Source of the DNA: Marsupella aquatica
Lineage: Eukaryota > Plantae > Marchantiophyta
Direction of reading: 5' to 3'
Length of the DNA: 64,000 bases
NCBI GenBank assembly: GCA_973895155.1
Contig: OZ316894.1
Span: forward strand, 15,740,699-15,804,698
Below the pieces are notes generated by a model, which searched no databases, had not been told where the DNA came from, and saw only the letters and a program-made list of their open reading frames with translations. Positions 7,401-43,867 of this stretch are shown here, piece after piece; the stretch's first letter is position 1, and every line of letters starts with the position of its first letter. Made by a program: the position numbers and the translations under genes.

Positions 7401-8180
7401 TCAAGCGGTGCGTGGGGCTTCGATGTGTATGTGTATACACATGAGAAAAACGGCAACATTGGGGTGTCCAAAGAGGGCGAAAACAGCCAGAAGGCGGGAA
7501 CGGCCCGCGAGAGGACGCGCGGGTGACAGGCCGGGCGCGACGAAAAGCCCGTGGCGGGTGAGTTTCCCATCAGCCCGCGATCAGGCGGGCTTGGCATTGG
7601 ATGGAACTATCAAACACATAGACGAAGCACACACCTCACACAGAGCTGCTGGCGGAGGAAGGACGAAGGAGGAAAGGTAGCAGACGACGACGAGCAAAAG
7701 GCGGTGTGCAGGAGGTGCGGGGTCTTTGCTTGTTTGTTCGCAAATCAACCGACCCGAGCCGAGCTAGGAGAGTCCATACAGTAAGCAGGAAAGGAAGCGG
7801 TCAGGCGTCTGGTTGTATAGCGGCTTGTAGTAAGTGTGGCTATGGCTTATGGTACTCGCGTCGGTGCTAGCTGTTCCCACGCGCTGTTAAGGAGAGGACA
7901 TTTCCCGCTTGAGATTTTTGTCGATGAAATCAAACAGCAACGGTGGCAGTAGAGCGCGTTAGGGTTTGGGATTGGCAGTAGAGAGAAGACGTAGGACGTG
8001 TGTCCGAAGGGTTGGCGGTGTGATGGAAGAGAGGGAGGTCGTCGTCGCTGACAGACGAAGGGGTGCGCGAGAATAGTAGGAGCAAGGAGAGGCGAGAGCG
8101 GGCGGGCGGGCGAACGGGGTGAGTTTAGGGAAGGCGACGTATTTTAGAGAGTTGGAGGGTGTGAAAGAGGGGGAGGGAAA

Positions 8181-9611
8181 ATGCCGCCGGTGCAGAGATC
8201 AACGCGAATAAATTTGCAGGATTTTAAGAGCAAGTTCTTGAAGATACTTGGCCCCGCGAAAGAAAATCAGTATTGGAGTCTGCTGATGAGCTTTCTGAGC
8301 TTCAAGCTGACCAAGGCAGAGCTGGACAAGCTGGTACCAACCACAATTGGGAAGGAGAATGTGGTGTTGCACAATCAGCTTGTCAAAGCTATATATTTCA
8401 ATGCGACTTGTTCTGATGCTCCGGCTCCGCCCCCGTCTGTGCACGATACGTCGAAACCGGTAAAGGGCATTCGAAGGAAGCCTTTGGTGACCCCAGCTTC
8501 AGTGTCCACCGAAGAGCCGGGTCCTGTGTCTCCCGTGCCAGTGGTACGGGCTAATGGCGATGGGACAGTTCCCTCATCGCCAAGGAAGGGCAGGTCTGCT
8601 ATCAACCGAGACCGGAAGGCGAAGGAAAGGCCTAGCCCCTTGGGCTTTCACCAAAGAGGAGAAGCTTCGACTTCTCAAGGGGGAAGTGCTCTCGATGAGG
8701 AAACCCACCGGATTTTGGAGAATGGGGGTCTTCAGATGCCAGACCTGGCAAGACCCGCCCAGCAATCTCCGTATCCTGCTGAGCATTCCAATTTGGAGCT
8801 AACGAGTCCAAACAAGCGTCAGAGACTTACTCCCGCTGCACCAGGGAATCATGTCTCACAACCGATAGAGGGGAACTCAGGAATGGGCGGGATGGGGCAG
8901 CCCAGAGAGGAGTTGGAGGATGTGGAAGAAAACGACGATGAGGAAGACGAGGACAATGACGGTGACACTGCCTTGTTGTCTAACAGGTTTGTTAAGCCAC
9001 CCTTAGGTGTACCTTTCTGTGTTTCTAGTGTGGGGGCTCCGCGGAGGGTGCCGTTTATGGGTTTGGTGGGTCCAATTACACACTCTCTGCTTGGGGATAG
9101 TCTTGACGACGGATGTTTTGAGGAAAGCGAATTGCCAGATGCAGAAGGTATGCAAAGACGCATGCAACAAACTGCCGTTATGGAGAATAGTTTGGAGGGT
9201 GTTAGCCCAGAGGCTGCCAATTTGCTCAACATTGCGTTGGATGTTTACCTGAAAAGTCTTATCAAACCTGCCATTGACCTTCGACGTGCAAAGCGTTCCG
9301 CTAAAAACAGGGAGAAGAAGTTTGCTAGTAAGGAGAATGGAGGGATTTATCTAGGGAAAAATCTCAGGAAAGATGGCACTAGTGTAATTTCACACAAGCA
9401 GATGAATGGGACATGGCCTGTCCACATTTCCAGGAGAGATGGAAATGCAGTTGGAGCAGAATCTGCAGCTTCAGAGGACGCAGCGAAATGCGGCTCATCA
9501 GTGATTACAGCTCTGGACTTTAAAGTGGCAATGGAGATCAACCCTCAACTACTTGGGGAAGAGTGGCCAACTCTCATGGAAAAGATAGCGCTGAGAGTGT
9601 TCGATCAATAG
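8181..9611 (+). CDS. ADA1: Transcriptional coactivator ADA1/TADA1 (SAGA-Tad1 domain), single-exon CDS, 476 aa
   Basis: N-terminal RINLQDFK..LG......YW.....FLSFKLTK.E.......IG.ENV.LHNQL, the RDRK...RPSPLG motif, and the C-terminal EGVS.EAANLLN.ALDVYLKSLI and DFKVAMEINPQLLGE.WP segments are typical of plant ADA1. Confidence 0.92.
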   Translation: MPPVQRSTRINLQDFKSKFLKILGPAKENQYWSLLMSFLSFKLTKAELDKLVPTTIGKENVVLHNQLVKAIYFNATCSDAPAPPPSVHDTSKPVKGIRRKPLVTPASVSTEEPGPVSPVPVVRANGDGTVPSSPRKGRSAINRDRKAKERPSPLGFHQRGEASTSQGGSALDEETHRILENGGLQMPDLARPAQQSPYPAEHSNLELTSPNKRQRLTPAAPGNHVSQPIEGNSGMGGMGQPREELEDVEENDDEEDEDNDGDTALLSNRFVKPPLGVPFCVSSVGAPRRVPFMGLVGPITHSLLGDSLDDGCFEESELPDAEGMQRRMQQTAVMENSLEGVSPEAANLLNIALDVYLKSLIKPAIDLRRAKRSAKNREKKFASKENGGIYLGKNLRKDGTSVISHKQMNGTWPVHISRRDGNAVGAESAASEDAAKCGSSVITALDFKVAMEINPQLLGEEWPTLMEKIALRVFDQ

Positions 9612-15241: not shown

Positions 15242-16253
15242 GGGATATAAGCTTGATGGCCCCTGGTGAACCTTTCTTACCTGATGGCCCCCTAGATAAC
15301 TTTTTTTACCGAGTAGGACCCTCTTAATGACCAGTACACCTGTTCTTATGTGGTGCCTACACCTGTCCTTATGTGGTGCCTTATGTGGTGCCTACTATGT
15401 ATGGTGACTCCAAGCAAACTGCACAGTTGAACTGTGCAGTCAACCTTGCATGGTCGCGCGACCGAGAAACCACGGAGATGATTCGGGAGAAACCGCGAAA
15501 AGCGACTGCCGCTGTCAAAACTATGATTTGAAGACAATATGCATTATGTTTTCGGATTCAATGGGTTAATGCCTGAAGACTCAATGGATTATGTCTTCCC
15601 ATGTTTCAAGGTTTAGGGTTTAGGGTATACCCGACACCTTTGGGTCTGTCTTCTTTTGAAATTGTTTGTATGCATTGCACAAGGGAGTATTACCATTTTT
15701 TGAGCGCAATTGTCAATCATTTGCCAATTTTTGTTGTGGCGGGCAGTAGGCAAATTCTGAACATTGAACTTGAATATTCTTTGTGGACATTTGGAGGTAC
15801 CCCACACTGACGCTGACAGTCGTGCATGAAAACATCGTGAAAAACCCATGTGCGCAACGTGAAAAACATACCTAATAACTACCCCACGATATGGTAAAAA
15901 TTTGAACCCGAAGACATAATCCATTGTGTCTTCAGGCATTAACCCAGTGAATCCGAAGACATAATGCATATTGTCTTCAAATTGCAGTTTTGACAGCGGC
16001 AGTCGCTTTTCGCAGTTTCTCCCGAATCATCTCCGTGGTTTCTCGGTCGACCATGCAAGGTTGACCGCACGGTTCAACTGTGCAGTTTGCTTGGAGTCAC
16101 CATACATAGTAGGCACCACACAAGGACAGGTGTAGGCACCACACAAGAACAGGTGTACTGGTCATTAAGATGGGTCCTACTTGGTAAAAAAAGATACCTA
16201 GGGGCCCATCAGGTAAAAAAGGTTCACCAGGGGGCCCATCAAGCATATATCTC
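15242..16253. mobile_element. Mutator-like foldback MITE, ~350 bp TIRs, 10-bp TSD CTTGTTGGCC
   Basis: 15242-~15598 is the reverse complement of ~15910-16253 (GGGATATAAGCTTGATGG.. / ..CCATCAAGCATATATCTC). The TSD is at 15232-15241 and 16254-16263. Confidence 0.93.
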
Positions 16254-16896
16254 CTTGTTGGCCGCTAGTAACAGCAAGCCTCGCTAGCAAAAACCCATCG
16301 AACAGTTTGTTCATATTTGAATGACTAATGTTTGTTTAAGAAACCTTTTGAGTGAAGTATGTCAATGTAACTTTTTTTTTAAACAAATTGGACAATCCAA
16401 AATAGATATAAAGATCATCACCAAAGCACTTGGCAAGGAGTTTTACTTGCAATTTAAATGATGGGCCTGGAGATTGGGAGTCATCAGTATCTCAGATAAA
16501 CACACAAAATTGGCACCATAACCAACATAAAAGGTTGGCAGTGATTTCAGGGAGAGTTGCCAACTGTAAAAAAAGCCAAGTCTGTAAAGACATGATATCC
16601 GACCTTATCAGGGTATGTGACTATGTCACTGATAGTTTTCTCAATGAGTAACAAACCAGGGTCCAAATCATGAACCTACAAAACTTTTCAAAAATATAGC
16701 TAGCGACCTCCCTAGCAAACCTGATGAACCAATATCTGGTGTTTTATAAATAAATTAAAGGGAACTTCATATGGAGTGTAAATATGATCTCTCCCTACCA
16801 ACACACAAAAAAGTCTACTCCCAATGGTACTTACATATATATTAAAAACCAATGAAAACCTTATTAAAACCAAACCTCACTCTAAAGTGGATAACA

Positions 16897-19800
16897 TCAA
16901 ACCTCAACTCCCCTTTGGATCAGATCGGAAACTTCAGCGACAGTTAAAATAGGCTGCTTGACTACATCCGAAGTCTCTAGGTTCAAATGGTAAACATTCT
17001 TGTAAACCCAAAGGATATGTTTGCAAGACATGTAAGGCTTTCCATGCGAATGCCGCTTATAGAAATCCTCAGAGGAGCAACATGGGAAGACGCACGACTG
17101 AATCCAATATTTACTAGATTTACTAGGGTTGTTTTCATGCGTCGCAATCAAAAACTGTCTTCCCCATCCGTTACCTTGGATGATCTTTTCACAAGCCACA
17201 ATCCTCATTTGCTCTTCATTTGCAGACTGAATCCTTTTAACAAGTTCTGCAGTGAAGTTGAAACGTTGACGAGCACCCTTCCCATTCCGCGTCCTCAGTC
17301 GTCTATTCAAATAGTTTACATCAACCTTTTCTGGAAAAGAGTTCACGTCAATTTGAAGTTCCACGCGACCTGGAGGAGCAACACTGCCATCTGGTTCGCA
17401 ATCCATGTAATAGAGACCATCAATCTGAAAACCCAAGCCAATCAAGAAGCTGATTTCAGGAGGAGTTAAGTCTGTCCCTCGAAGAACTTTTAGAGACGAG
17501 GGTACTAAGGGAAGTTGGGCAATTGACTTGCGCCCCCTGGTCTTGTGGCAGACATTGTTTGGGCAGAAGTATAAGAGTTGAGGATGTGGTGAAGTCATCC
17601 TCAAACCATGGATTGCAACCCCAACCACACCGTCCGCAAGACCGAGTATGAAAACCTACACTGTTCACCGTAATTAGTGTTATGCAAGAATTAGTGTTAG
17701 TACAAAATTAGTGTTACTAACACTAATTTTGGTAAAAATGATTTTGAGTCCAAGTAACACTAATTTTTGTCGGTTTTCAAAATGAATTTTTTTCAGTTTA
17801 GTTTAAATTGCTTGTAAAAAACGGATGATCTCTAGTCCAAAGTAACACTAATTGTTGTGGATTTTTTAAAATAGTTTTTTTCTTTGTATTTTGCCACTTT
17901 TAAGACCATAGTAACACTAATTCATGTGCGCAAAAATAGTGTTAGCACAAAATTAGTGTGACTAACACTAATTCGCGAGTAGACCCTGAAAATGGGCGCT
18001 CTCGAATTAGTGTTACTCACACTAATTACGGTGAACAGTGTACTTCCTTGATTAAATTTCGACACTCATCTCTTCCAGAAATGGTCCTATCCATAGACCC
18101 ATTGCACACTGGACCATTTCCTTTCCCGCACCGCCTTAAGTGCCAAGTACCAAATGGGACATCAACTTCATTTACCGCAGGTATTCTCCTTGGTGAAACT
18201 GGTTCCTCTGGACGGACAGGAGATACATGTTGTTGTGACAATGGCTTAGGAATTTCAAAAGTGTCATCTCCTGAGCTCTCAGTGTCATTCCCTTCATTAT
18301 CGGAAAGAAGAATCACGACGGATGGATCTGGACAACTAGAGAATGTTGAAGGATGGAGTATGCCCGAACTCTCCTTCAACTTGTCGCTCTCTTCCACGAC
18401 ATTGACACTCCGGAAATCAGAATATGAATTTCTTGGATGTACGCCTCTTGTCATCGCCTCCGTGCACATCACCTTATCATGTCGATGAGAGTCTTCAGCA
18501 CCAACTCTATGAAAAAGCTTGGCCTTTTCATTTTCTGGACTTTGTGCAAAGATCTCCATGAAGTGGTTGAGTGCGATGGAACTCATATTTTGGAGATGAT
18601 TCAAGCAGAAGATTGGTTGCTTTCTCAAAAGCATCAAGGGATCCTAGTGTATCTGCATTCCTATATGCAAGTTCAAATATGGTAGGTCCATGTCCCCTGT
18701 GGCATCTTTCAATGTACGCAGCAAAGGCAGCAATCTGCCCACCAGCACAATTTTGATCAAGCTCACAAGCTTCAATCAGTCCAATCTTCTTCTTCATTTG
18801 GCAAGCTCTCATTGAACCATGTACAGATTCGGCTCCAGTACAATTTGGCATCAACGCTGACTCCTTTGTTGTTTGAGTCTGAAGTCTAGACATAAACAAA
18901 CACAATCATTGGGAGGCACATACTTGATTTGAAGATAACATTCATACACGAAAGGAATGCTAGCGACATCGCTAGCCAAAAACAATGAGTTTACTTACAA
19001 GTCTGAAGAAGTTTCCCCACTGTCGCCATCGGACAACCCACCAAGCAATCCAGCCTTGCAAAGATCTCAATTTCCCAGGGTGACAATCCCCACACTTCCA
19101 CCACTCTTGAATATTGTTAGCCATCCTGTAAGCTTGAACATATGAGGGTGCTTCCTAAATTTCTCCCACATTTGGTAGTGTTCGGAGTGTTTCCCTTCAC
19201 GAATTCCCTCCACGGTATGACATCTTAGTGACTGCGAGAAATGGAATGCATCACTATGTTCTTTCTCAGGGAGACGAACACCATCAAAGAAAACATTTCT
19301 CACAGCGATCCATCCAGCTTCAGCATTGTCAGCCATAAAACCAGCTATGTTTACATTGGAAATACCATTCTCAGCAACAACTTCCAACATTAAACGCCAT
19401 GCAGTTTCTAGTGAATCAACATCCTCGGCTTTCAATTCACAAGTGAAGATAGTACAAAGAGCGCGATAAGTGTGATCGTATACGTGAGCACTAAAAGTTA
19501 ACCAACCAGTAGTTATTCTGTGCATCACGTCAAAACTCACCCAAGCTCCCTCTAAAGTTCCACCTTTTCGCATCCGATTGAGAATGTCAACTCCAAAACC
19601 GGGACCTTTGGTACTCATCTTGAATACATGCGCTCAAATGGACTTGCCAGCCTGGCCAGGGAACAGGAAACGTTGTACAAATGGAAATCTCACACGCATT
19701 TGCATGTCACGAAGCAAATCCAACTAACCTTTCTTGGGATTCCCAATTTTAACGCTCCGGAAAATTGCATGGAATTTTGCCGGCGAGGACACAACTTTCA

Positions 19801-21032
19801 TCGAGTTCCACAATTCCACCTCCTCTTCTTTTGAAAGATCGTGACATGCCTCAGGGTGGAGAAGAGATATCAATGTACCTATTGAAATATTCTTCACACG
19901 GGAAGGGGTTGCCAAGGGATGAGCTGACTGAACTTCTTGAATAACATCTTCCACCTTTTTGTTTGCAACTCGACACTTCCCCATTCGGATGGGATGATCA
20001 TGAACTCCCATATGCACTGCGAGTCTAGACATGTGTTTTGAGACATGAGAGTCCAAAGTTGGCTTTGCATAAACATAAAACATCATTGCTGGACAAGGCC
20101 GGACACAATAAGGTCTCTCATCACAAAAGCCACAAACCAAACCTCCTTCCGGAACCAGATTTCCCGGCTGGAAGACATCGGTCATTAGTGATCTTCCAGG
20201 AAATGCCGCTTCATTCCTCATTCCTGTCTCCTTGAACCTTGAACAATTCAAATTTTGGCACTGCACAACACCACTGCAACGGACCTTGAAAACAGACCAG
20301 TGATTACATGGCTTTAGGTTAGCCAAAGTAGTGACCAAGCGGGTCCAAGGGTAGCCATCATTGTCGCGGTCCATGTCAAGAAGCCCTTGACCGCAACCAA
20401 ATCTTGACTCCATCGGAGGAAGCTCATATACCTTGTCTCCATTGTAACTTGTTGGAAGATGATCAACTTGGACATCAACCCACGAGACATCTCTTCTAAA
20501 TCTTGCTAGCTCACTTGCCCCAGTAATGCTCAAAAACGCTTCAAGCGCACCAATTCTGTAGACTTTCTGCAAAAGATGACATCCCAGAGCACTTGGAAGA
20601 GCAATATCTACTTCCAATTTTGTAGAACAACTTCCAAAAACAGAATTAGTACCCTCAAGAGTTGTAAAGTTACTCAAAACTAGAGGCCTGGACATTCGTT
20701 TCTCTCCCCGGGGGAGAGTCCAGGTCTACAAGCACTTTTCCTTGAGGGTTCTGGAAAGGCTCTGGAAAATCATCTTTGCCTGATATAACCTCCACCACAT
20801 CTCCGGAAGCAACCTCCCAAACTCTTTCACCAAGTAGAGTTCCTAAAATTAATTCATCCTTCCTTGATCCATGAAGTGAAACAAGAAAGAACAATCTCGA
20901 AATGAAATCACAGTTATTGAGCCCAAATCTTGTCAAAAGAAAGGCCTCGATCACATTAGTGATCTTTCTCAAAGATGAAAGAGTAGCAATGTCTCCAGTG
21001 CTCCGACGCCAGAAGATGACGCTCGGAGCCAT
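16897..21032 (-). pseudogene. MULE-type DDE transposase with N-terminal GCM/FLYWCH-like Zn domain and C-terminal SWIM finger (stops, frameshifts, MITE insertion)
   Basis: Zn domain C.G...C....C..CGFC..C...C..H.G.H.HP (19724..20695). Catalytic-like WVSFD, FMADN, DAFHFSQ (MULE CxxH box) and AESVH(E). SWIM-like C.CSSEDF...CKHILWV. Intron ~18998-18886. In-frame stops between 19724 and 19618 read through to FPFVQ..FPGQ..VFKMS. Confidence 0.85.
17659..18040 (+). mobile_element. MITE, family A copy 2 (intact), inserted in the MULE transposase; TA duplication
   Basis: Perfect 22-bp TIR CACTGTTCACCGTAATTAGTGT / ACACTAATTACGGTGAACAGTG flanked by TA on both sides. Removing it rejoins LIKEV|GFHTRS. Confidence 0.95.
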
Positions 21033-21880
21033 CAAATGAGGACCAAGACAAGAACCCAAATGTCACAAAAATCATGGATGAATATATAGAATAATATGAA
21101 GACATTAAAGTTTAGAATAAAACGGAACATCACTTTAACGTTGCATATACGACAAAACTTCAACGGCTCTAATACCTTCAAGAAATGAATTATTGCTAGC
21201 GATATTGCTGGCCTAAATTTGCTATCATAAAGGGCTCCATATAATCCAAAGTTATATCTTGTAATCGTCCAAAACATTGACTGTTTTCTGTTGACAACAA
21301 GGATATCTTGGGTTGTTCCTAAATGTTTACTGAACTTGGAGTACATTAGGAGGATTATTGAACTTGGAGCTTCGTGTTAAACAACGGTTTTTGCTAGCGA
21401 CCTCGCTAGACATAATTTAGGAAATTTTTCTGTGTTTAAGATGGACTCTATTATTAAACCAACTCTATTTTTAGTGATTCTATAATATGATTTTCACTCA
21501 CAAATTGACATTAACAGAGGAGAGGATTCGGAGATGTCCCATAAATTAAACCTTTTAGAAACCCTGAATCAGGCCAGCGATATCGCTAGCCTGATGCACC
21601 CAAAATTTAGGGTAGACTTTTATTTGAGTTTGGGATTAAAATGAGGGATATCAAAATAAATATATTTCCGAAACGTTATGTTTACACATTAAACATTGTT
21701 AAGTTTGTTTGACTTCTGTCAAGTATTTTAGAATTTAGGAAAGAATTAAGGGTTCATTTAAAAAACAATACATCACTTTTAACCTACCCCATTAACACTA
21801 ATTTGGCCAGCGATGTTGCTGGCAAAAAAGCGTCTAAATACATGTCTTAAACAAAGTATGGAGTTTGCCTATTTTTCCTT

Positions 21881-21916
21881 ATCAGTCATCTAATCAGTCA
21901 TCTAATCAGTCATCTA
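21881..21916. repeat. Tandem repeat, 3 x ATCAGTCATCTA, in the divergent promoter region of the MULE
   Basis: Directly visible. Confidence 0.85.
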
Positions 21917-22323
21917 ACGACAAAATTATATTACCGTTGGAAGGATTAACTTCATTTTCTACATCCATCGGCATATTTTGTATGACACCCAACCCAAGTT
22001 GGTCAGCTATAGAGTAATTGACTCGAACTGTTGGAGTCAAATGTACATTTCATCCGAACGAGTTGTTGTTAAGCAGTAATTAGACTCATTCTTAACGTTA
22101 ACTGATGCTTTGTTAATGTTAGTTAGCACCAGCGGGATCTTTGGCATGAAGGTGTTAAATACTGATATTCCCTGTCAATGTCAGATACACTGTAGGTTAC
22201 TTTGGATTCCCCCGATATCTTGCTTAGGATTCCTAACACATGTGACTTTGGATTCCTTTGCAAATCACCGTACCAATTGAACCTTGTATTCCGTTTACGT
22301 GGTTCTCCTCTCCTTATCAGTCG

Positions 22324-25300
22324 ATGGCAACTTTTGCATCCCCTGAGTCTATTTCGTCCGTTGCCTCACAATCAGCTGCCTCTCAACGTCGAGAGACCAG
22401 GAGTTCTACGAGCCACAAAGCACTTGCTTCGGGGCTGAAGACTCCAAGGAGGCAAAAGCTTGTTGATCCTATGGATATTGTGCCACCTTCGATGGATTCT
22501 GCCAAGTCCGAGCCTTTCTTAGTTGTCATTAGCCACCATCTTTACCAGTTTGGGCCGGACAAATTTGGGTATCCTCTGGTTCCCCCTCGAATTCCATTGT
22601 GTCGAATGCGGAACATGCAACTTGTGAGGTCTCTTCAGACAGATTTGAATGCAATTGAGACTTTGAAGAATGAGTTCCGGGCTCAAGGGTACATTGAGGA
22701 CGTGCCTCATTTTTATGTGCAAATGACAAATGAGAATGGCGACGTGCAGTTTCTCAACGACACAATCAGACAGGGCTGGGATCCAATGTGGTTGGCGCAG
22801 AATGAAGCTTTTGAGAGGGAGTGTGATTCGCATCCTGATTTTGCGGTGCTCAAGGATAAAATGTTTTGTGTTTTTGATGGCAATCACCGTCTCTATTCGT
22901 GGAACCTGCTTGTTGTTGAGAATCCTCACGATGTCAAATATCATCCTCGAGTTGTCTCGAAGATATTCAAAGGAGAGAAGGATACTGTCGTGCAGATTGA
23001 ATCTACAATGCATGGTCTCAACCGGTGAGAAGATCTTTGACACATTTGATCTTTTTCCTCCATCTTTTGTGCATGATTTGTTCTTGTTGTTTTCTGAATT
23101 CTGTCCTCATTGTCAGGTTGACACAATGCCATGTCAAAAATTCGTGGGTGCTGGAAGCTGATCGGGTCCAGAAGATTTTGCGCACAGACCTCTCAGTTTA
23201 CAAAGATTTAATTGATCCAGAGAATTTCAAGTTATTTCAGCAGAAGATGCAAAATGTGAAGAAGCCATCGTGGTATTCGAAGCAAATGACCTTAGATGCA
23301 TGTATTTATATTCTTTCAGCGGCAAACATAGCTTCGCAAACTGTTGACTTACTCAAGAAGTTTGCACTGAAGGAGGAACTTGGTGAACCTCTGTCGAAAG
23401 CTGCAAAGGACATTGCAATTCGAGATATGATGAAGGAGCAACTCTCTGACTGGAATGTCAAAGTTCCAAAGTTGCCCCGCTTCTGAATCCAGACTTTGGG
23501 GATTTCTTCAAGAAATGTGTTGAGATGCACAATTATTGTGAGAAAGAAAGGAAGGAAGCTCAGCGGACGGATGATAAGGGGAGAGGGAATGTTTTGTGCG
23601 GCCTTGATCGTGCAAGGCTTTTCACCGGGGTAACTTCTCTGAGTCCACAACTCCGTTGCACTCTTCTCGAAGCACAGTGCAGACCAGAGTTGCGTAAACA
23701 ATATTTCCACCCATCTCAATTTTTGGATAGTGAGACCAAGCTCTGGTTGCATCGATGGGCAACCTGGGAACACGTAGAGTCCATTGCGAGGTGCTTATTA
23801 AGTGAAGCAATCTCTGAGATTATTCTCACTGTCCCTGAATCTAGAATTCTTTCTTCCGCAGAGAATAGTCGGGCATCCCTCCTTGTTGAAATTGATGATG
23901 AGTTTGAGGATTCCCTGCAGCGGGTTAAGGTAAGGTTCTTTAAGAGCATCTGGAACCCGAAAGTTGGGGAGAAGATTGACATTGTTGCTTTTTGACGGAG
24001 GGCAAAAAGATATGTTTACAAGTTTTTTGTTGATCGGGAGGTAGCAAATAGATCTTTTTGGTGGTGTTATCCGACATGTTTCTCTCAATGGGCACAATAT
24101 GCAAGAGATGATTCCGGTTGTGAGAAGTTTGGGGAGTACTCGATGTACCCTATTGAGGACATTGAACCCTTGCGGAAGATAAGTGAATGGGAGGTGCTGC
24201 ATTGTCCCTGGTATTTAGATTCGGAGAATTGGTCACTGACATTTGATGTGACAGAGAAAGCTGCGCTTCAAAAGATCAATCGTGGCTTGGTCCCAGAATT
24301 CTTTATTAGTGAATCTAAATTGTGCAACCCGGAAGTAGAAATTGCTGGTTGTGTGTCAATGGAGCAGGCATGCCTTGGGGTGGCACCAACTGTTGATAGG
24401 AGCCACCCTCGGAAATTGAAGTGGGATGTTGCCAAGGAGGTATCAAAAGATGGCTCTATGATTTCTGGAAAGAAAAGTAAGTATATTCTTATCTCTCCGA
24501 AGCTTACTTCTATTACCTCTCCCAAGCTGCTATTCTGATTAAGTTTATGACATATCCTGAGGCTCTTAGGTTGCTTTTTGTATCCAGAAAGGAAGAAGTC
24601 TTCGGGTTCCGAGAGTGTTCAGACTGTGACTAATGGTCGCCAGGAGGATCTTGTTGAGCCTGAGTCTCCCAATTTTGAAATTGTGACTAAGCCAGGAGGT
24701 GATAAGTCAGGGTCCCAGAGGTTGAAGAAGAAGCGAAAGGTTCAAGTGTTGTCAGATTCTGATGAGGAAGAAATTTCAATCCGAGAGGGTGTCACAAGGC
24801 TCTGTGGACTCCAGTTGGATGGAAGGCGACATTTCCTTGCAAAGAGTAATCTGCGCTTGACGGCTGACTCGATAAGTATGAAGAAGGTTCGACCTTCTTG
24901 GATGGGGGAGGGGGATCAATGGCTTTCGGAGATTTCAAGTTCTTCCGAACACCCGAATCCCTTAAAAATCAACGGGAAGCCTTACACTGGGACCGGTGCC
25001 CATCTGGGGTTCATAGCTCTTCCGACTGGGCTGAGGCCTCGTGTTACCGATGTGGACATTCCCCCATGGAATGTCTAGGTTGAGAAGCTCCCTTACTATT
25101 TCTTTGGAGTGATGAGGCCCATGTTGGCCGATGATGGGTATGTGGCCGTTCTCCATAGTGGAGAATTTAACCACACAAAGCAAATTTTTGCTGCTGTTGA
25201 ACAGAGGAACAGATTTAAACACCTTCGGAAGTACCACGTTTTATTGGGGTCCCAATGTGGATGCCAGACATGAACATTGAGGTGAGATTTGTGTAAAATA

Positions 25301-25903
25301 TGCATGGTTTAGTATGTTTTTTTGACAGCAATCTCGCTGGCCTTCCTGGATTCATTAATTGACGTTTTTTTGTTCTTTTCCAGGTTTGCAACTTAAGCCT
25401 GGATGTCTTTTGTCGAGTGGAATTCAATGGGAAGATCCCAAAAGACCCAAAGTATGTCCCTTTGGCAACGTCTGAAGATGCATCACATAAGACGATGTTG
25501 AGTCTTTGTTATCCAAAAAGGGATACCAAGGCAGAGTTAACTTTTTCTGGTTCCTCTCGGTTGTCTGTTGGATTCATGCAGGTTGTGATGGAGCTTCTCA
25601 CAAAGCCTAGAGACATTGTGCTTGATTGGAATATTGGAGACGACAGTTCATTTTCAGCTGGAGAACTCTCCGGGAGGTTCGTTGTTGGGGTCGAGGATAG
25701 GGATGTTCTCCATGGTGCTGCAGAGAAGGCATTGAAGAGTGTTCTTGAGAGACACAAGAAAATTGAAGACCTCACTGAAACATTGGAGGACTTCGATTGA
25801 GAGGATGAATTTTCTCTTGCAGGATCAAAGAGTGAAAAACAAAGATGGGGCTCCTAATGTTACTGATGCAAAAGATGGGGATGATGAATTTGACCTGGAG
25901 TAA
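22324..25903 (+). pseudogene. ParB/Srx-like N-terminal domain + C-terminal beta-class N4C/N6A DNA methyltransferase-like protein (TE cargo; introns ~23025-23116, ~24478-24587, ~25283-25383)
   Basis: ParB-like: VRSLQ..L.....F...GY....FYV...VFDGNHRL. MTase-like: MRPMLADDGYVAVL (cf. RVLKPGG) and ELLTKPRDIVLDWNIGDDSSFSAGELSGRFVVGVE (cf. TKPGDIVLDPFxGSGTT..A....R.FIGIE). One frameshift (~23470) and in-frame stops (23993, 25076, 25798). Confidence 0.75.
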
Positions 25904-26023
25904 TGTACTGGTCCTCTCGCTTATACCAGATCCCTTTGCTTTAATCAATTGGCTGGTGAAGCTTGCTATTGTCTTTCGATTGGATATTTCATTGATAGTG
26001 CTCTCATTGTTTTCATGATTTCA

Positions 26024-26378
26024 GAGATTCTCGTGTCGACTGGTTTTCTGAAGAGAGATTTTGGCTTCGAAGGAAGATTGAAGAATCTTGCATTGTTTCT
26101 CCTCAGAAGACGTTTACTCTGCCTTGCTATGCAGAGAAGTCGGCAATTCAGTCGGATGATGCTTTTGTAATCTCCTGGGAAGGCAAAGGTCGTAGGTCAC
26201 ATCGTGGCGCCAGACAAATTTATATTGCTTGCCTTTTGTTGACGATGAGGCATGCCTTGTTAAGCAATATGTTGATGAGTCTGCTGAGTCAACTGATCGG
26301 GATTTCAGTAGTGACCAGAGCAATACTAGTAGTAGGAATGATATAGAGTCGGATGAAAGTCATTCAAGTGACTTATGA
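26024..26378 (+). pseudogene. Additional degenerate coding exon (DSRVDWFSEERFWLRRKIEE...acidic tail), unknown function
   Basis: Follows a tttcag acceptor. The frame is open for ~115 codons with a single TAG. Confidence 0.4.
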
Positions 26379-27250
26379 TTTAGAACAATATCCCTGGACA
26401 GTTTACTCACTTACTGTCAGTTTTGACAAAGTATTGGAGGCAGTACACTTTTTGGAAATATGACTTTGAAACGGGTTTGAAATCTGAGTTGATTCATTGA
26501 CTATGCCTTTTCATATCCGCCTGGTGTTTTACTAGCTTGTGTTTAATCATATGGTTTGTCAATGATTGAAGGCTAGCGACCTCGCTGGACATAAAATTGT
26601 ATGATCCCATTCTGGAAAAAAGGTTCATTTCTGTCGTAGAAGTCTCACTATACTCCCAATTTGCCACTCTGACCATTAGTTTTACCTCACTAGCAACCAT
26701 TAACCTCGCTGTCAATATCTCCTGTTTCCTCGCACCATACAAACCCCCCCATCATTGTCCCAATCCACTTCACTATTGGTTGTGATTACAATAGGGTGAC
26801 TCAAAGCTGAGATATTAGGGGTAATGGCATTCAGCCATTAAGGAATAACTTTTTCATAGGATTCTGTAAAAGTTTATTTTGTTTTTCCTTTCACCAGCGT
26901 TGAGAGTGACTAATGGTAATGGCATAAGATCAATCCTTATGGCAACAAGTTATAGACTCTAAATTTGGTGGTCCTTAACTTTTTGTGTCCTTAACCAGTA
27001 ACTAGGGAGTTAAAGTTCAGCTTTGAGACTCCCTAACAATAATGATATGTGTAGCCCAAATTTTCACTTATCCTCTTCAAGTGTCTAGCATATGCTGGTC
27101 CAGGCACAAAATAGTCAGGGTGGCTTTACAAGAAGTATGTGTGGGGGCACTTGTGACTTTTTCACACCCAAGTAAATTGAGGAGTCAGTTCTTCTTCTAA
27201 TTAGAGTATAGATCAAAATACTTTTTGAAATATCTATATAACTAATATAG

Positions 27251-27634: not shown

Positions 27635-29079
27635 GGCCGCTGATTGATAAGATTTCTATTGCATTCGAAGAATGGGCATTCAGGCTCGTAAACCAAAATA
27701 CTTTATGAAATGAAGTTCAGTCAATGCATATCTGGATGAAGGGGACAAAATTTGGAAACACTTGGAGCACTTATGAAGATGGCCTAAAATTCTAGACCAA
27801 ATAAGAACACCACCTCAGCATTTCCTTGAGCCCATTGCCTGCCTTGCAGGATCCTTAGACACCCAACCTGAATCGGCTCCTGAGTTCTTGTAAAGCCAAC
27901 TGCAGCCATTTCAACTCAATATATATTGTCAAGATTGAATCTCAAAGGGAATTCTGAACATAAAATGATATGTCACCCCTTGGATAATTGGCCCCCATGT
28001 GTAAAGCCACCCTAACTGCCACTTCTTTGCAAAAATTTAACTAATCCAGGCACTGCCCACCTTTGCAGACATGTCTATTGAAGTGTTTTCTTATTCAGAA
28101 TTCTTGAGGAGAGTAGGAGCTTACCAAACAAGTTTGACTCAAGATGGGGATGGATTCTTCGGAGACATTGGCTGATTGGCGACTAACAGCAGCCACGCCT
28201 ACAGCTAAAACAGATGGAAATCTATTGTAGATTATCCCTAGTGTACTATATCATTTACTTGGTATTTGGATGAACTCATCCGTTACGGATAACAGGACAT
28301 ATGATGGAGCATGAGCAGTGGTCTAGTTTTACAATTCCTTTCATCTCTATAATGATGTGTGAATTTATCTATTTAAACCCCACTCAACCAATGACCAGAC
28401 AATTCTCTTGCTTGCAAACTAGGTGGCCACTTGTCTTCCTAGTTCTTGTGTTTTTAATTGATAAATGAGGGGCTCTCAATCCAAGGCCTAGACTAACAAG
28501 TAAGGATTAATTTACAAGAGAATATAATTATATACGAAAATGAGATTTTTGGCAGTTGTTGCACCTTTGGGCTGATGACCTTTGAAGTGGGACCTGCACC
28601 TCTCCTGTTGTTTTGGGTATTCCTTCGCCACTGTTTGGCATGCTGGTTCCGCCCATCTGAAGATAATTGCTTGATGACCCCCAAACCAAACTTTTCTCCC
28701 CAACCAACCCCATGAGATTTGGGTACTTTGATATAAAGTCTATCAACGGTGTGGATCACTCAGGTGCCCATCAACTTACACTTTTCATCTTGGGGTCCAA
28801 CAAGCATATACCTCCTCCCCCCCCCCCCACATCTGCAAGAGGGGTGACCCAAATAATCTTCAAAGTTAAAAACCAAAATAAACAAATCCCTGCAAGCCAG
28901 TTGAGCTGAGTGCACCTGGGCGCTTATTACCAGTGGTTACTTTCAGTGTCCTTTAAAGTGCTTCCTTTCCTCTTTCTTTTTCTTCATTTGGGAGTGTCCC
29001 ACTGAAATGAAGGTTTCTTCCTGAGGTCGCTGCCAATTTTTTGTCCAAATACACTTTGCCACTCTTTCAGTTTAATTTA

Positions 29080-29721
29080 CACTATTTACCATAACTAGTG
29101 TGACTAACACTAATTTGAGAGCACCAATTTTCAGGATCAACTCACAAATTAGTGTTAGTCACACTAATTTTGTGCTAACATGCATTATCTCCGCGCACAT
29201 GAATTAATGGTGTTGTGATCTCAAGAGTGGCAAAATAGAGGGAATAACTATTTTGAAAACTTCACAACAATTAGTGTTACCTTGGTCTCAACATCATCCA
29301 TGTTTTTACTAGCAATTCAACAAGAGTTTTTTTTTGTTTGAAAAATGGACAAAATTTAGTGTTACTCGGACTTAAACTTACTTTCACCACAATTAGTGTT
29401 AGTACACCTATTTTGTACTATTGCTAATCTACAACTATAATAAGGGATCCCACCTTTTTTGTACTTTGTCCCAATACAAAAAAAACTCCTGAGCGGGAAA
29501 GATCCATAGCTGTTGGATTCTATTAGTTATTTTCCTTGAGCATTGATGGAAGTAATGTGCACCCTTGACACATATGTGCTTACTACTGCCCCATAAATGA
29601 CCCAGCCCAACTCCCTATGGACTGGCCCTCCTTGCACAATGGACGGTCCTCCTTGCACAGTGCAATGCATTGGCATAGGGCTGGTTCTTGCATAACAACA
29701 CTAATTAAGGTAAGTGTAGTG
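29080..29721 (-). mobile_element. MITE, family A copy 3 (inverted, diverged), containing a nested Helitron
   Basis: Reverse-complement similarity to 17659-18040, split at 29427/29685, with TA on both flanks. Confidence 0.8.
29428..29684 (+). mobile_element. Non-autonomous mini-Helitron (257 bp)
   Basis: 5' TCTACAACTATAATAAG, 3' CTGG (CTRR) preceded by the hairpin CAGTGCAATGCATTG. Inserted between A and T with no TSD; the empty site CTAA|TTCTTGCATAAC is given by the other MITE copies. Confidence 0.85.
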
Positions 29722-32800: not shown

Positions 32801-35800
32801 ATGGACGAGGCCACGTTGCGGTCAAATGGAAGGGCTGCGACCATTCGATCCGGAGACCCTATGGTATGTCTTCTTGAAGTTGATTTGTTCAGTATGGTAT
32901 CAATAGCTATAGCGGTCTCCTATTATAAGTTTTCGTTGACCACGACCCATAGTAACCAGGCTATCCACTGCTTTCAATCCCGTTTGCATTGGTTCGTGCA
33001 TAGATTTACGTGCAATGGTCCTTGGGGCTTTCACTCCAGGAAGTCCAGGTATTCCACCTGCGGTATTCGCACGGTCGAAATGGAGTCTGTATTTCTTGCC
33101 TCATTTACTGTAGTGTACAATTTGAGCACTTCTTTGTGTTCTTGTCCATTCTTTTGGTTAGTAGCTAAATTCTTGAATGGGTGCCGCCTGCGCCTTAGTC
33201 AACCATGAGTAGATTTGCCTGAGGGGAGCATTCTTTGCGAGATTCGTCGTGGTTTTTCCAAGCCAGTTTGATTTGCTGGTTTGGCCGCGTTGGCTAACTT
33301 AATGCCTTTTCTGAAAGATCGTTCTGTGTTTGCCGCTTCCAGTCTCCTCTGCGCCCAGATTACAGAAGTGTCTCAAAGAAAGCGTCGGAGGTAATGGGAA
33401 AGGTCAGCGAAGAAACAAAGGTAGCTACTGTAGCGGCCAATCCTTACTTGCCGAAAAATAGGCTTGGACTTTTTTCTGAATTAGTTCCGGAAGGTCCATT
33501 GCCACTAGAAGATGCTACTAGGCTGCACAACTTGATCCGCTGAGAAATTCTCTCATTCTAGAAATTCTCTCATGAGAAATTCTAGAAATTCTAGGATTGC
33601 CCAAAGTAAGCTTGGAAAGCTTTTAAGCTTTGAAGCATGAGAGCAGAAACAGCTGAAGCGGGCCGCCTTCTTTTGTTGTTGAACCTTGAAGTCGAGCTGT
33701 CTATCGATTATTTCGCAAAGGAATTGAATCGCCTTGTGTGTTTGCGTATCCCACTTTGCCGGGTCTGCAGTAGCGAGGACCAGACCCACTAGCGAACCTT
33801 CGGTGGGGAAGGTTGGTCGTTTCTTTGCAGGAGCACTTCCTAACGTGCCTTTTGATCCTGGACACAGGGATCTACTCGCTCACATAGGCCTCTGACGGTG
33901 TATAGGTTGGTGCGCGGGATAGTTTGTCTCATCACTCTGGTGTCAACGGCGTTCGTTTCTGTTGTTATGCTCGCTCCAATCGTATTTGTCATACTTCGGG
34001 CTTTTGCGGTGCACACAAGCAGGAGATTGTCCGCTGTGATATTTGGACAGTGGCTGGCGTTGTGGCCGTATTTGTTTGAGAAGATTAACGGCACCAATGT
34101 GATCTTTTCTGGGGACAAGGTTCCAAATGGAGAACGTGTGATGGTGATGTGCAACCATCGCACGGAGGTGGACTGGATGTATATATGGAATCTTGCTCTG
34201 CGGAAAGGGCGGATTGGCTCTTGCAAATATGCCATGAAGAGTAGTGTTCGCAATATACCAATCTTCGGTTGGGCTTTTCATGTCCTCGAATTTCTTCTTC
34301 TTGATAGGAATTGGGAGCACGATAAGCCTGTGATTGAAACCTACCTCAGGAGTTTCAAAAATCCTGGTGACCCGTTTTGGTTTGTACTTTTTCCCGAGGG
34401 TACCGATTTCACGTAATCTCTCTCCCCACATTTCTCTGTCACTCCTTGTATTCTCTGGTTTTTTTGTTTATTCGCAGATCTTGCCGGATGTTTCGTGTAG
34501 CCCAGGAGTTTGCGTTATGCTGGCGAGGTTGCATGGTTGCGAAACTGATCAATTGTATAGCAATTTCAAAGCACGTTCATCAATCCTTCTTATGAATACT
34601 CTTGCTCTGTTGGTCGCGCATTACCCCAAGGTGTTCTGATACCCTCCTCGTGCAAGCGAAACTGGGTTTTTATTTCTCATTGACTATCGTTTCACTCTGT
34701 GCAGAGAACAGAAGTTGATCAAAGGCAACAACTACGCCAAGGAGCTTGGTCTCCCCGGAAATTTACGACATGTACTCCTACCACGGACACGAGGATTTGT
34801 GGCCTGTATCCCACTTGTGCATCGGTCCCTAGACGCAGGTACCAGCCTCAATTTGCCGACCTAGATTTGCATGCGAAACATAACAAATGTGTTCTTCAAA
34901 TTGTGATCGTGGCGTTGCTTGGCTAAAATAAAAATCTGTTAAGTGAGTTGGAGAAACTAGCTAAATCTGAAAGGGACGAGGAGCCCTCGTCTTGAAGGCT
35001 TGTATTTTAAGGCTATAATTTTTTTTGTTCCGCTTTAATCGCTGAAAGATAGTCCTTCTAACGTCAAATGTCTATGGGACTGCTCTGCATTGTTTTATGG
35101 AAGGTTATCAGTGATGCAGTTAGTCAAAACTTTCAAGAAATTTTGCAGCAAGAATATGTCGCCGTGTGGATTCCCCTCGAATGTTTTGGAGCTCAATTTT
35201 CTTTCTTTATCGTTGTGGGGAACAGACGGCGATGTTTAGAACAAAGTGATGCCTAACTTAATTCTCCGAGGCGGAAGTCGTACCCATTTAGGCACACTTG
35301 TGAATTAGAGTGACGTCATAGCCTTTTGTTTTTGGAGTCAACTTTTACCATCAGTATCATGGTTCTCTAGCGGCGATGTTGTCAATCGGAAGTCACCCAC
35401 TCACCCAAGCTATTGATCATTGTTCTAATTGACTCGCAGTTTATGACCTTACAATTGCATATAAGTACCGCTGCCCACTATTCATTGATAACCTCTTTGG
35501 AATCGATCCTGCTGAGGTTCATATTAATGTTTGTCGCATTTCCATGGAGGACATACCAACTTCAGAAGAGGAAGCTTCATCCTGGTTGTATGATCGTTTT
35601 TACCAGAAAGACAAGCTTTTGACTGAATTCAACAAGGACGGCTGCTTTCCAAACGGGATTGATGAAGGAGAGCTAGATACAAGAGCATTTCTCCTTAGGT
35701 CAGGAGGGTTCGTGATAAGTACCATCACAGTGTTGAGGTACGCCCTGTTCCATTACACATGGTTACAAGTATATGTGGCGTTCAGTGTGGTCCTCCTCTC

Positions 35801-38982: not shown

Positions 38983-39645
38983 CTACTTGAATTTAAAATA
39001 GAGTACCAGGAGAATAACAAATATGAGGGTGACAATAAGACCCCAACCGATCATTTTGTTCCGATTCATTAGTCGGGTCATGCTGACGAGAATTCGCCTA
39101 CTTTTGCCAACGTTGTCATCGACATCATTCATTGTGTCCCGAGTATGCAGAAGAGTCTGTCGCTGCGAATGCAGATCAGCTAAGATTGATACGCCAAGAG
39201 ATTCAGTCTCTAAAAGAGTTCTTTTACTGTCCTTGATCCGGTCTCCAGACTGGTTCAATCGTTCCGTCGCTGTCAATAACCTTGTTCTTTGATCAGCGGA
39301 CAAAGTGTCCGAGTCTGCCATCCCTCCCTCCATCAATTCGTCTCTGGCGGCAAAGCCATCCCTAGCTGCTAACGTCTTCTTTGCCTCCCGCTTCAAATTG
39401 GTCAAATCAGCTTTGTGCGCCCGTAACCCGGCAAGAAGGGTAGCTTTCTGTGTGGGAGGCAAATTTCGCGCCTCCAGATCCATCCTTCGTATCAAGGACT
39501 CCGCCTCATCGAGCCCATTCTTGATCTCAACAAGCATCTGTTTCTTCTCTTCTCCATTGGCAAGAGCACTCGACACGCACTTCCGAGAGATTTTATCGGA
39601 CAGCTCGAAGTACTGCCTTTCATAGCTGTCGTACGTCTCACTCAT
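38983..39645 (-). CDS. VTI1: Qb-SNARE VTI1 family (VTI11/12/13-like), intronless CDS
   Basis: MSETYDSYERQY..RRMDLEAR..DQRTRLL..TERL..LETE.LGVSIL.DLHSQRQTL and a C-terminal TM helix. Start taken at MSET. Confidence 0.95.
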   Translation of the reverse strand: MSETYDSYERQYFELSDKISRKCVSSALANGEEKKQMLVEIKNGLDEAESLIRRMDLEARNLPPTQKATLLAGLRAHKADLTNLKREAKKTLAARDGFAARDELMEGGMADSDTLSADQRTRLLTATERLNQSGDRIKDSKRTLLETESLGVSILADLHSQRQTLLHTRDTMNDVDDNVGKSRRILVSMTRLMNRNKMIGWGLIVTLIFVILLVLYFKFK

Positions 39646-41569
39646 CTTATCACAAACACGGCTGCTGCAGAGAGGCAACTTCAGTAGAGCAGAACGTGAC
39701 ATGCATAAATACACAAGAAAACACCACCAAGGAAAATTGCTCGGAAAGCAAATTTACTCCAGAGGAGGTTACAGGACCAAAATCACCCCAATTAGGTCAT
39801 CCATGGTTCGAGGGAAAATACAGTACCTCGTGTGAATTGACCAGTTTCCGCACCCGAACAAGGGATGCAGTGTTATGTCACCTCCCGCGCAACTTCAAGA
39901 TGAGAGTGGCGTCAATCAACCAAACGCATCCCTAGAAACTCCCGTGAAATAGGTGTCCTCGATCTCAGCAGAAAAGATCTCAGCATCAAGCACTAGCAGA
40001 AGCCCGTGTGCTAAATTCGAGGGCCCTATCGCAAAAACTATTCTCCTTCCGCGCCACTCCCAGCGACTGGCCAAGCGATCAAACATCAACAGCAATTCAC
40101 ACGGAGATGGATAGAAGCTACAGTAGCACGGCGCTAAACAGGATGATACCGTGGGACTAAATTCATAGCCGAGACAAAAGACTGTACAAGCGAAAGACTG
40201 TAAAAGAGTGGGAGGGAATCCAGAGTCAGCCAAAGACAGAGAGGGGGGTGTCCTCTCAATACTTTCGAATGATCAGGCACTCAAATCTGCAGAGAAGCGA
40301 GATCCAACAATCGACGAAAAACACGGACGCGACGGATATCAGCACCCGCGAAGAAGAGCACGACCTCACCGTGTCAAAGGCGAAGGACGGAAGAAAGTCA
40401 ATAATGGACCAGTCACTTCGAGCAGACTTTACGGTGTTTCAAATGCGTGACGGTAACCTCCAGACTAGCGTAAGAACACGCGAATTGATCGATTGAAGCC
40501 GTCAGATCTGCTTTCGATGATCTGGAGAGGGCAATAGTATTGGGTCGCGGTAATTGCGCATAAAAATATGAATATAAGGTATTACTCAACACATCACTAC
40601 ATACCTCATAAATCTCATTAATTTGTTTAAATGAGTGAGTGCACACGAAACTAAAACCCATATGGATCCCCACTTTGTCTGTGAAGCCCAGATGGACTGG
40701 CAAAGCCTGGATGGACTTGTTCAAAACATTTAAGCTGACTCAGATAACACTGTTTACAGTTTCACTGAAATGTCACTTGTAAATGGTCTCCTTATCTTTT
40801 GCAGCCGGTTTCAATTACATTACGGAACCAATTTACCTGGTAACTTGACTACTTGATGACTTTAACCTGAAAGACGTCATGTCATTATTCAATATATATC
40901 ACTGTGACCTCTTGACTACTTTCTCCACAAGGTACTCAAAGTCGTAAGCTGTGATCCGCAACCGATTACTTTTCTTTTCGGTGTAAAGCAACAATTGCTT
41001 TATGCAGACCATTGGGATGGGCAGGGACGATATCTCGGTCCATCTAGGCTTTTGTTTCGAGTGCACACAGTATATTATCAAATTTTGATATGTGATTACC
41101 GCTAGGGAATAGTATGGGGGATAGTATGTTCCAGTACCTCAGGAGATTGGCTGACTTACATGTGACTTACTTACTTACAGGATAATGGGAGTCTGATTTG
41201 GGGTTACTAGGTGGGGAAAACCCGACCAGCTGCAAGAGGGAAGTTTTTCTGAGCTTACTTGGAGGAGGTTTAGGCTAGAATTCATGCCCGGACCTCCATT
41301 ATAGTAAATAATATTGGTACAGAACCAAAGTTACCTGTGTGTAATGATTTTGATTTCTAGAGGCTTCTCCAATATCCATAGTCTCATGCTTGGAAAGCCC
41401 TGTTCGTTAATTGCTCCCACACTGTATTTACATACCATAAGGACGGCCTCGGCTGGGGTTCTGGACTAAATCTTGTTCCCAAATTGCTCAGAAAAACTTC
41501 ATGGTTGTCGCCGACAACTTTTCTTTTCACTTTCTGATTGCAGGATTACATCCTAGTAACCCTGTGCCT

Positions 41570-42546: not shown

Positions 42547-43867
42547 ATGGATCGCATGAGTGCTTGGAGACAGAAATTCCAACAACAGATTGAGGCAGAG
42601 ATGGCGGCCATGGAGGAGGAGGATGAATTTTGGGAGATGGCCATTTGTACTGGACCACTCTCTCTGCAAGGAGTCCAATCATTGCAACGGAAGGAGCGCA
42701 AGCAAGGAGGAGGTTCGATGCGGCCTAGCAAGAAGCCCAACAAAGATAGGAAGCATGAGTGAGGACATCAAACCATTCTTGATGATTACTTCACTGAGCC
42801 TTGTACATATGATAGTAAGGATTTTTGTAGACAATTTAGGATGACCCGACATATGTTTGATAGAATCCTGCTTGCAGTTTCTCAACACGATCAATTTTTT
42901 CAATAGAAGAGAGATGCTACAAAAAATTTGGTCTATCTGAGTTGCAGAAAGTCATAGCTGCTTTGCGCCAATTAGCATTTGGGATAGGGGCAGATGCCAC
43001 TGATGAATATTGTAGGCTTGCAGAATCAACAGCCCGAAAGTCTCTCTTCCGATTTTGCTTGGCCATTAGAGAATTATATGAAGAGAAGTATTTGCGAAAG
43101 CCACACAAGAGTAATTTCTTGAGGCTACTGGATTTCAATGAAAAAAGAGGGTTCCCAGGCATGTTTGCTACCCTTGACTGCATGCACTATGAATGGAAGA
43201 ACTGCCCAGTGGCATGGCAAGGACAATTCACCGACAAAGATGGGAATAAATCCATAGTTCTTGAAGCAATTGCCGACCAGGAACTCTGGTTTTGGCACGC
43301 CTTTTTTGGACTTCCAGGTGGGAATAATGATTTGAATGTACTAGATTGGTCTCCTCTGGTCAACAACATGCTGCATCAACACTATGACTAGGTGCACTTC
43401 ACCATCAATGGAACAAAGTACAAGAAAACTTACCTGTTGGTTGATGGGATTTATCCCAAGTGGTCTTGCTTTGTCACTACCTTTCACAAACCTCAATCAC
43501 AGAAGAAAAGTTATTTTGCCAAGTGTTAGGAAGGTGCTTGCAAGGATGTGGAGAGGGCGTATTGCAAGCTAGATGGGGCATTATCAAGCAACCTGCTAGG
43601 TCATGGCATATGGAGCGAGTCCATGCTATCCTCATAGCCTTAATTGTGCTACATAATATGATAATTGAGGATGAAAGGGGCGAAGAGCATGAGGATTTCC
43701 TTGCTGAAGCAGGTCCATTGTTGACTATGCATACGGGGAGCATGCCGTGGAGAGATTACTTGGCTGCAACAAAGGACTTGGAAAATAGTACCAGTTGGTC
43801 TGGTTTGAGAAATAACTTAATGGAGCACCTTTGGCAGCAGAAAGGCGAAATAGGTGGAGAAGATTAG
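42547..43867 (+). pseudogene. Harbinger transposase (HARBI1-like DDE), several stops and frameshifts
   Basis: ALRQLAFG...DEY, RGFPGM...LDCMH..WKNCP.AWQGQ, LEAIA...LWFWHAFFG.PG.NNDLNVL, YLLVDGIYP, KDVER and LQARW motifs. Confidence 0.93.

Follow-up and report, generated by a model that had tools for sequence, protein, structure and literature searches.

The 64,000-nucleotide stretch of Marsupella aquatica DNA analyzed here (the window) contains a spliced accessory gene whose predicted product combines a ParB-like N-terminus, a middle part without assignment and a methyltransferase (MTase)-like C-terminus (1,092 residues when the breaks in its frame are read as X). The gene lies head-to-head with a broken transposase-like gene, and copies of a 16-bp palindrome are distributed across the two (Table 1). 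The two short segments that an earlier note had placed at the catalytic and S-adenosylmethionine (SAM) motifs of the C-terminal domain, GFIALPTG (25007-25030) and WNIGDDS (25627-25647), are both encoded on the + strand in the last two exons, with motif IV ahead of motif I. Between the two, the frame is interrupted by a TAG stop (25076-78), the loss of one base near 25250 and an intron of 102 nt with GT-AG ends (25282-25383). The gene is multi-copy in public runs, with many divergent copies, and the window was compared with related contigs from four runs of three organisms (71, 146, 86 and 11 contigs). Other copies of this set have an open frame at the breaks of 25076, 25250, 25798 and 25834, the first stop among them being also present in run X1 (42 of 60 depth), and those near 23469 and at 23993 lie outside the compared stretch. 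The window copy is a pseudogene and is catalytically dead.

Profile comparisons identify the C-terminal domain as a real, very divergent beta-class N4C/N6A MTase fold, in agreement with the motif order recognized in the earlier note. Catalytic motif IV precedes SAM-binding motif I within a collinear domain, as is typical of this class. The last exon matched Pfam N6_N4_Mtase (PF01555) with E=0.023 (15.1 bits; profile positions 167-213 of 221) and E=0.0077 (16.6 bits), both below the Pfam gathering cut-off of 26.7 bits, which is also missed by three Riccia relatives (P0152, P0154 and P0155; 23.7-26.2 bits). Further matches were obtained with PRK13699 of NCBIfam (E=8.8e-4) and DpnA in the PDB (E=0.04). 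In the ESM Atlas, the motif I half reached a top score of 0.95, its ten best matches all belonged to one family, and PF01555 was found on 7 of the 7 listed among 30 matches. The motif IV half alone gave no score against four phage beta-MTase profiles (19, 70, 89 and 59 sequences), and it was matched with 31.8 bits (best of 1000 shuffles, 3.0) by a profile of seven plant relatives from which the window was left out. This profile places ALPTG of the window on DlPtG of the family and DxPtG on DLPYG, DPPY or SPPY in the four phage sets, with HHalign probabilities of 88, 91, 54 and 84%; about 200 columns were aligned, with probabilities of up to 96% when the window was included and 91% when it was not. 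By this profile the register that had been proposed is correct, and the profile searches do find Rossmann-fold MTase similarity, on which the earlier note had let its reading depend. Other tests comprised an early position-specific scoring matrix for ALPT (2 of 12 comparisons gave P=0.01-0.03, with a subfamily chosen post hoc, which is too weak alone), single-sequence AlphaFold models (pLDDT 40 and 38) and phage tblastn, which returned weak MTase matches only, and nothing with the ParB-like exon. An alternative register that sets SPPY on IPPW was rejected, as related contigs read VPQW or VPSW at this place and the plant relatives fix the register.

A full HMMER search that used the first exon as query gave 238 relatives at E<=0.001; word-based protein searches found nothing, and DNA scans of metagenome, viral and prokaryote genome contigs found no relatives, their one pattern match (L001) being a chance match inside a bacterial gene. 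The 30 relatives that were looked up by name comprised 13 proteins of Riccia sorocarpa, three each of Adiantum capillus-veneris and Adiantum nelumboides, and 11 unnamed metagenome or Logan proteins, with no algal protein among them. Riccia has many paralogues of the family, and one of its annotated proteins, P0154 (KAL3677308.1; 1,207 aa), matches the entire window protein in collinear order (residues 1-1039 versus 80-1170, 25% identity, E=6.6e-74); P0155 is KAL3683583.1. In three Logan proteins of 156 aa (P0056, P0157 and P0158), the beginning of the ParB-like exon is joined to the region of motifs X-I, and these products probably derive from a closer relative by internal deletion. The gene model of P0102 from A. 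capillus-veneris ends in a NIF/FCP1-like phosphatase domain (Pfam E=2.4e-12), which is either a fusion or an annotation merge. Family members also occur on longer metagenome contigs, namely the P0036 cluster (JGI, up to 11,985 bp) and P0176 (ENA, 15,789 bp).

The motif IV region is present in 6 of 155 proteins scanned, and none of them, nor the window with its ALPT, has the beta-class consensus (D/S/N)-P-P-(Y/F/W). Riccia P0154 and P0155 (95% alike) read DLPT, P0156 reads DMPT and P0035 DMPS, and A. nelumboides P0127 and P0130 read DFPI and DVPF, respectively. The family motif is D-x-P-x-G, in which Asp, the second Pro and Gly are each found in all six, the first Pro in none and the aromatic residue in one. 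Because the six relatives share 19-55% pairwise identity (the 95% pair excepted), Asp, the second Pro, Gly and a downstream Trp are under selection and the aromatic residue is not. L-P-T-G is common to the window and Riccia at about 24% identity and is therefore a clade trait. The replacement of the motif IV Asp by Ala in the window, together with His for the Asp five places earlier, reads as a further loss beyond this family-wide change. Contig X1-1 (depth 124) spans 24857-25039 without a difference, ALPT included, the contigs listed for run X1 differ from the window at 25048, 25212, 25330 and 25540, and among the 40 of 158 differences listed none falls in motif IV. ALPT is thus likely common to close sister copies, and we infer that the Asp was lost in the window lineage while the frame was still open.

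In motif I, Gly takes the place of the second GDD Asp at the 25642 codon in 219 of 314 depth in run X1, 230 of 330 in X2 and 603 of 603 in X3, and this Gly is encoded by three codons (GGC, GGA and GGG). The motif reads DFAGGWG in three near-identical Riccia proteins and YAGCG and YVGCG in A. capillus-veneris (weak profile scores); DLPY-group phage enzymes, with DNCMGSG, are also without the motif I Phe. GxG is retained by the majority of related contigs and by the plant relatives; it is thus ancestral, and GDD is a late decay in a sub-lineage. The acidic residue of motif II is kept in the family. Within an 82%-alike subfamily, the motif I-II region shows 5 silent changes versus 1 replacement besides the Gly (16 of 30 differences listed). 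The motif X His (HPxxKP or HPAxFP) is gone in the family, which has GSSRLS, GSCRLS or GRRKCT at this position.

Table 1. Features of the accessory gene and its surroundings (window coordinates)
Feature	Position	Strand	Basis or remark
Accessory gene, 4 exons: ParB-like N-terminus, middle without assignment, MTase-like C-terminus	22324..25903	+	Predicted from GT-AG ends and homology
Predicted exons	22324-23024, 23117-24476, 24588-25281, 25384-25903	+	All introns GT-AG
ParB/Srx-like domain, VFDGNHRLYSW	22585..23024	+	Likely; conserved motif and Atlas leads
Motif IV strand and loop, HLGFI-ALPT-G	25001..25030	+	Relatives: D-[LMFV]-P-[TSIF]-G
Motif X position, GSSRLS	25549..25566	+	Phage beta-MTases: HPTxKP or HPAxFP; Riccia: GRRKCT
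Motif I, DWNIGDDSS	25624..25650	+	DWNIGDGSS in most related contigs (25643 A>G)
Motif II, GVED, acidic residue retained	25687..25698	+	
Six breaks of the accessory gene	Frameshift ~23469, TGA 23993, TAG 25076, frameshift ~25250, TGA 25798, frameshift ~25834	+	ORF/translation reading
Broken partner gene, head-to-head with the accessory gene	16897..21062	-	Cys/His-rich part, Mutator-like DDE core, C-terminal SWIM-like CxC..CxH; motifs read by eye in ORFs
16-bp palindrome, 8 copies, 7-2-7, core CTAGCGA-nn-TCGCTAG	16699, 18959, 21195, 21393, 21573, 21806, 25324, 26572 (range 16699..26588)	.	Sequence scan

These oddities might all reflect an ordinary DPPY enzyme decaying neutrally in dead transposon copies, an account that would suit the six breaks of the window copy, the late loss of the second Gly and probably of the Asp, and the many fragments among the database relatives. 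However, T or S for Tyr and L or M for Pro are common to the window and four Riccia proteins at 23-25% identity, silent changes predominate in the motif I-II core, and the shared D-x-P-[TS]-G already largely refutes this account, which we regard as improbable. The earlier note had posed decay in this copy and a family-wide catalytically dead fold as an either/or, and this opposition fails, as the change in the SAM loop is late decay and that in the catalytic motif is partly family-wide and partly a later loss. Each option holds in part. Decay covers the six breaks and GDD, but not the loss of the first Pro and the aromatic residue, which is not private to this copy. The family-wide option agrees with the loss of the first Pro in 6 of 6 and of the aromatic residue in 5 of 6 relatives, with catalytic death observed for the window pseudogene and deduced for the family. 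On the question that the note had raised for an alignment of the family copies, D-x-P-x-G is found in the six plant relatives that have this region and GxG in most contigs and in liverwort and fern relatives.

In other amino-MTases, single substitutions of the aromatic residue strongly reduce activity. In a model of rotifer N4CMT, the motif IV Tyr stacks on the flipped target base, the target amine is bound by the first motif IV residue and the carbonyl of the first Pro, and the cofactor is contacted by the second Pro and His253 (PMC10406627). His253 presumably corresponds to the motif X His. The change of SPPY to APPA abolishes N4CMT activity (PMC8885841). Judged by these roles, the family retains most cofactor contacts and mostly loses the stacking residue, and in the window lineage both catalytic side chains are lost. 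Loss of the stacking aromatic residue and the motif X His would be expected to cripple base methylation, and on balance we lean toward a family of weak or dead methylases that may still bind SAM. It is possible, at clearly lower probability, that the family is an active amino-MTase with an odd D-x-P-x-G site and marks the element that carries it (or RNA or protein), only the window lineage with Ala for Asp being dead. Asp, the second Pro, GxG and the motif II acid are kept across liverwort and fern, DLPY phage enzymes show that the first Pro is variable, and self-methylation was proposed for an algal version (PMC12477816); activity is conceivable above all in the fern member that reads DVPF. 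Against activity, the aromatic residue is gone in 5 of 6 relatives and HP..KP of motif X in all members seen, the branch to the phage enzymes is very long, and the kept residues are also the ones that hold the cofactor (PMC10406627).

The first exon likely encodes a ParB-like domain. G, N, H and R of its [DE]GNHR motif are each present in 44-46 of 47 aligned relatives, and among members of the ESM Atlas clusters linked to this exon 31% carry DUF3723 and 11% ParB_N. A profile search gave weak DndB matches in 2 of the 47 aligned relatives. DUF3723 is described as a recurrent cargo gene of Starships (Starship preprint).

In the partner gene, the Cys/His-rich part of which we take to be GCM-like, motifs read by eye include a DDE core in which DAFH follows the second Asp (FMAD) by 26 aa. 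The published rule for Mutator-like element transposases is (C/D)xxH at 15-45 aa behind the second Asp, with a zinc finger before it and SWIM behind (PMC5499845). The palindrome lies in one intron of each gene, in four copies between the genes and otherwise behind both 3' ends, and no further copy with <=2 mismatches occurs elsewhere in the 64-kb window (the consensus was drawn from these sites). A motif-free scan ranked it first among the dispersed 16-mer families of the region (7 members), against 3-6 members in other 10.6-kb windows, except for a tandem array with 10. The change 25330 A>G, present in runs X1, X2 and X3, makes the intronic copy perfect. Taken together, we infer one two-gene element of ~10.5 kb whose palindromes would be bound by the ParB-like domain or the transposase. 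A captured or domesticated gene beside an unrelated transposase would fit the lack of terminal repeats and target duplications in the searches, yet the same palindrome recurs in the introns of both genes, between them and in both 3' flanks and is absent from the rest of the 64 kb, there are many divergent copies in four runs, and Riccia has many paralogues, which makes this alternative very unlikely. The ends of the element may be hidden by later insertions. At its left, a fold-back element (15243-16255) has ~350-bp inverted arms that are 90% alike and a 9-bp duplication, TTGTTGGCC, on its flanks; it is a Mutator-type miniature inverted-repeat transposable element that borders the two-gene element on the left and may hide the left end. 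An internally repetitive ~350-bp repeat is found inside the transposase-like gene (17648-18042) and in two further copies (1798-2104 and 29078-29428).

Elsewhere in the window, we observed an 18-bp-unit tandem array (945-1600), two copies of a ~1.4-kb repeat that lie 45 kb from each other and are 81-86% alike (2357-3743 and 47474-48861) and a Harbinger-type Plant_tran fragment (42864-43391, E=5.8e-38). By the Plant_tran match (42864-43388), the window has a eukaryotic, plant-like character. Rfam gave no match across 15-30 kb. Long intact host-like open reading frames lie at 8148-9611, 33856-34416, 38983-39753 and 56030-58648, and by eye these are presumably ADA1-like, an acyltransferase, a VTI-type SNARE and RING-WD40, respectively.

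The explanation that we favor, and to which we give somewhat better than an even chance, is that the accessory gene, now broken, belongs to a likely Mutator-type plant transposon, its end being the MTase-derived domain. In the intact family, a weak or dead methylase domain would still bind SAM, and binding to the 16-bp palindromes of the element itself is predicted for the ParB-like end. The protein would thereby load on its own element and act as a DNA- or chromatin-binding scaffold that favors expression or transposition. In support, algal transposons have been reported with the same architecture and adjacent inverted repeats. We consider it rather unlikely, if worth stating, that land-plant Mutator-like transposons carry a ParB/parS-like system of their own, in which a ParB-type clamp at dispersed 16-bp palindromes, those in introns included, would bring a SAM-binding pseudo-methylase that protects the element against silencing by the host; the methylase half would be eroding stepwise (Tyr, Asp, SAM loop) while the protein is still selected.

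Several observations weigh against the favored explanation. The partner transposase had no Pfam, NCBIfam or PDB match, Pfam and PDB profile searches of the first exon and its relatives gave no ParB match, and no terminal inverted repeat or 8-10 bp target-site duplication was found in the zones searched; the palindromes could instead be transposase sites. A working enzyme would be consistent with the catalytic Asp, present in all six relatives, and with the aromatic residue of one fern protein (DVPF). The window copy shares GDD with contig X1-5 (depth 94). Motif IV is informed by 6 sequences from 2 species, some of them partial models of possibly dead copies. Subfamilies that are 80-84% alike lie outside the motif IV comparison (40 of 158 differences listed), and the contigs merge close copies.

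Among known systems, the Dam-like domains of DIRS1 (PMC4738411) are also transposon-borne amino-MTases judged inactive from substituted catalytic residues, and they differ in belonging to another MTase group and to a retroelement polyprotein, with no ParB-like partner in the available description. With phage and bacterial beta-class MTases (PF01555; DpnA, CcrM; DLPY and DPPY groups), the family shares the order IV...X-I-II, the spacing between the motif X position and motif I, GxG and the motif II acid, whereas it has D-x-P-x-G without the aromatic residue, no HP..KP, scores below the Pfam cut-off, a spliced gene and the ParB-like fusion.

Eukaryotic beta-class amino-MTases of bacterial type are known from Marchantia (MpDN4MT1a/b; bioRxiv 10.1101/2021.02.12.428880) and rotifers (N4CMT; PMC8885841, PMC10406627). 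These are host genes with (T)SPPY and proven N4-methylcytosine activity; MpDN4MT1 has TSPPY and, as described, no extra domains, and N4CMT carries a chromodomain. In contrast, the family here is Asp-type in 6 of 6 relatives and fused, and its profile matches the SPPY set worst (54% versus 88-91%). The phylogeny suggested in the earlier note was run with phage enzymes only, without DN4MT1 and N4CMT (38 of 148 phage sequences drawn at random and 5 family sequences, fern fragments left out). It recovers the family as a single clade (100/100), on a very long, unreliable branch, that falls outside the clade of phage SPPY enzymes (96/93), and it names no donor. The link to liverwort DN4MT1 raised in that note found no support, since motif type and architecture differ, DN4MT1 being set apart by description. 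The acquisition was likely separate, and because the family clade looks separate from DN4MT1, plants may have taken up beta-class amino-MTases at least twice.

The closest parallels are algal. Plavaka elements of red algae (PAG2/PAG3; bioRxiv 10.1101/2025.02.11.637652) carry, as cargo, domains of the PF01555 methylase and ParB-like types, which also occur on Chondrus Mutator elements, with inverted-repeat arrays beside the ParB gene. There, methylase-SET and ParB-2-oxoglutarate oxygenase fusions are separate genes and the repeats form tandem arrays, whereas here a single fusion is accompanied by dispersed single palindromes. Transposons known to bind and re-mark their own DNA are very few, and the same work (Bostrychia) names VANDAL alone. 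Sola1-1_Ec32 of Ectocarpus has a 1,104-aa gene product with ParB-like and N4C/N6A MTase domains, encoded opposite the transposase, and similar green and red algal proteins are cited (PMC12477816); a search of five supplementary files of this paper found neither ParB nor methyltransferase. The product here is of similar length (~1,090 aa), with a likely ParB-like domain and a C-terminal amino-MTase domain, a strand opposite that of the transposase and a proposed binding of its own element. The two differ, as compared by description, in a brown alga with a Sola-1 transposase versus a land plant with a probably Mutator-like one. The ParB-MTase transposon architecture is thus already known for algae, and no account of the land-plant members or of the altered active site was found in the literature searched (subscription papers, e.g. 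Iyer 2011, lay outside it). The algal ParB-methylase helper genes are assumed to methylate, and the present case would extend this class to liverwort and fern genomes, with a non-standard active site and a candidate binding site. Both halves thereby become testable with the annotated Riccia proteins P0154 and P0155.

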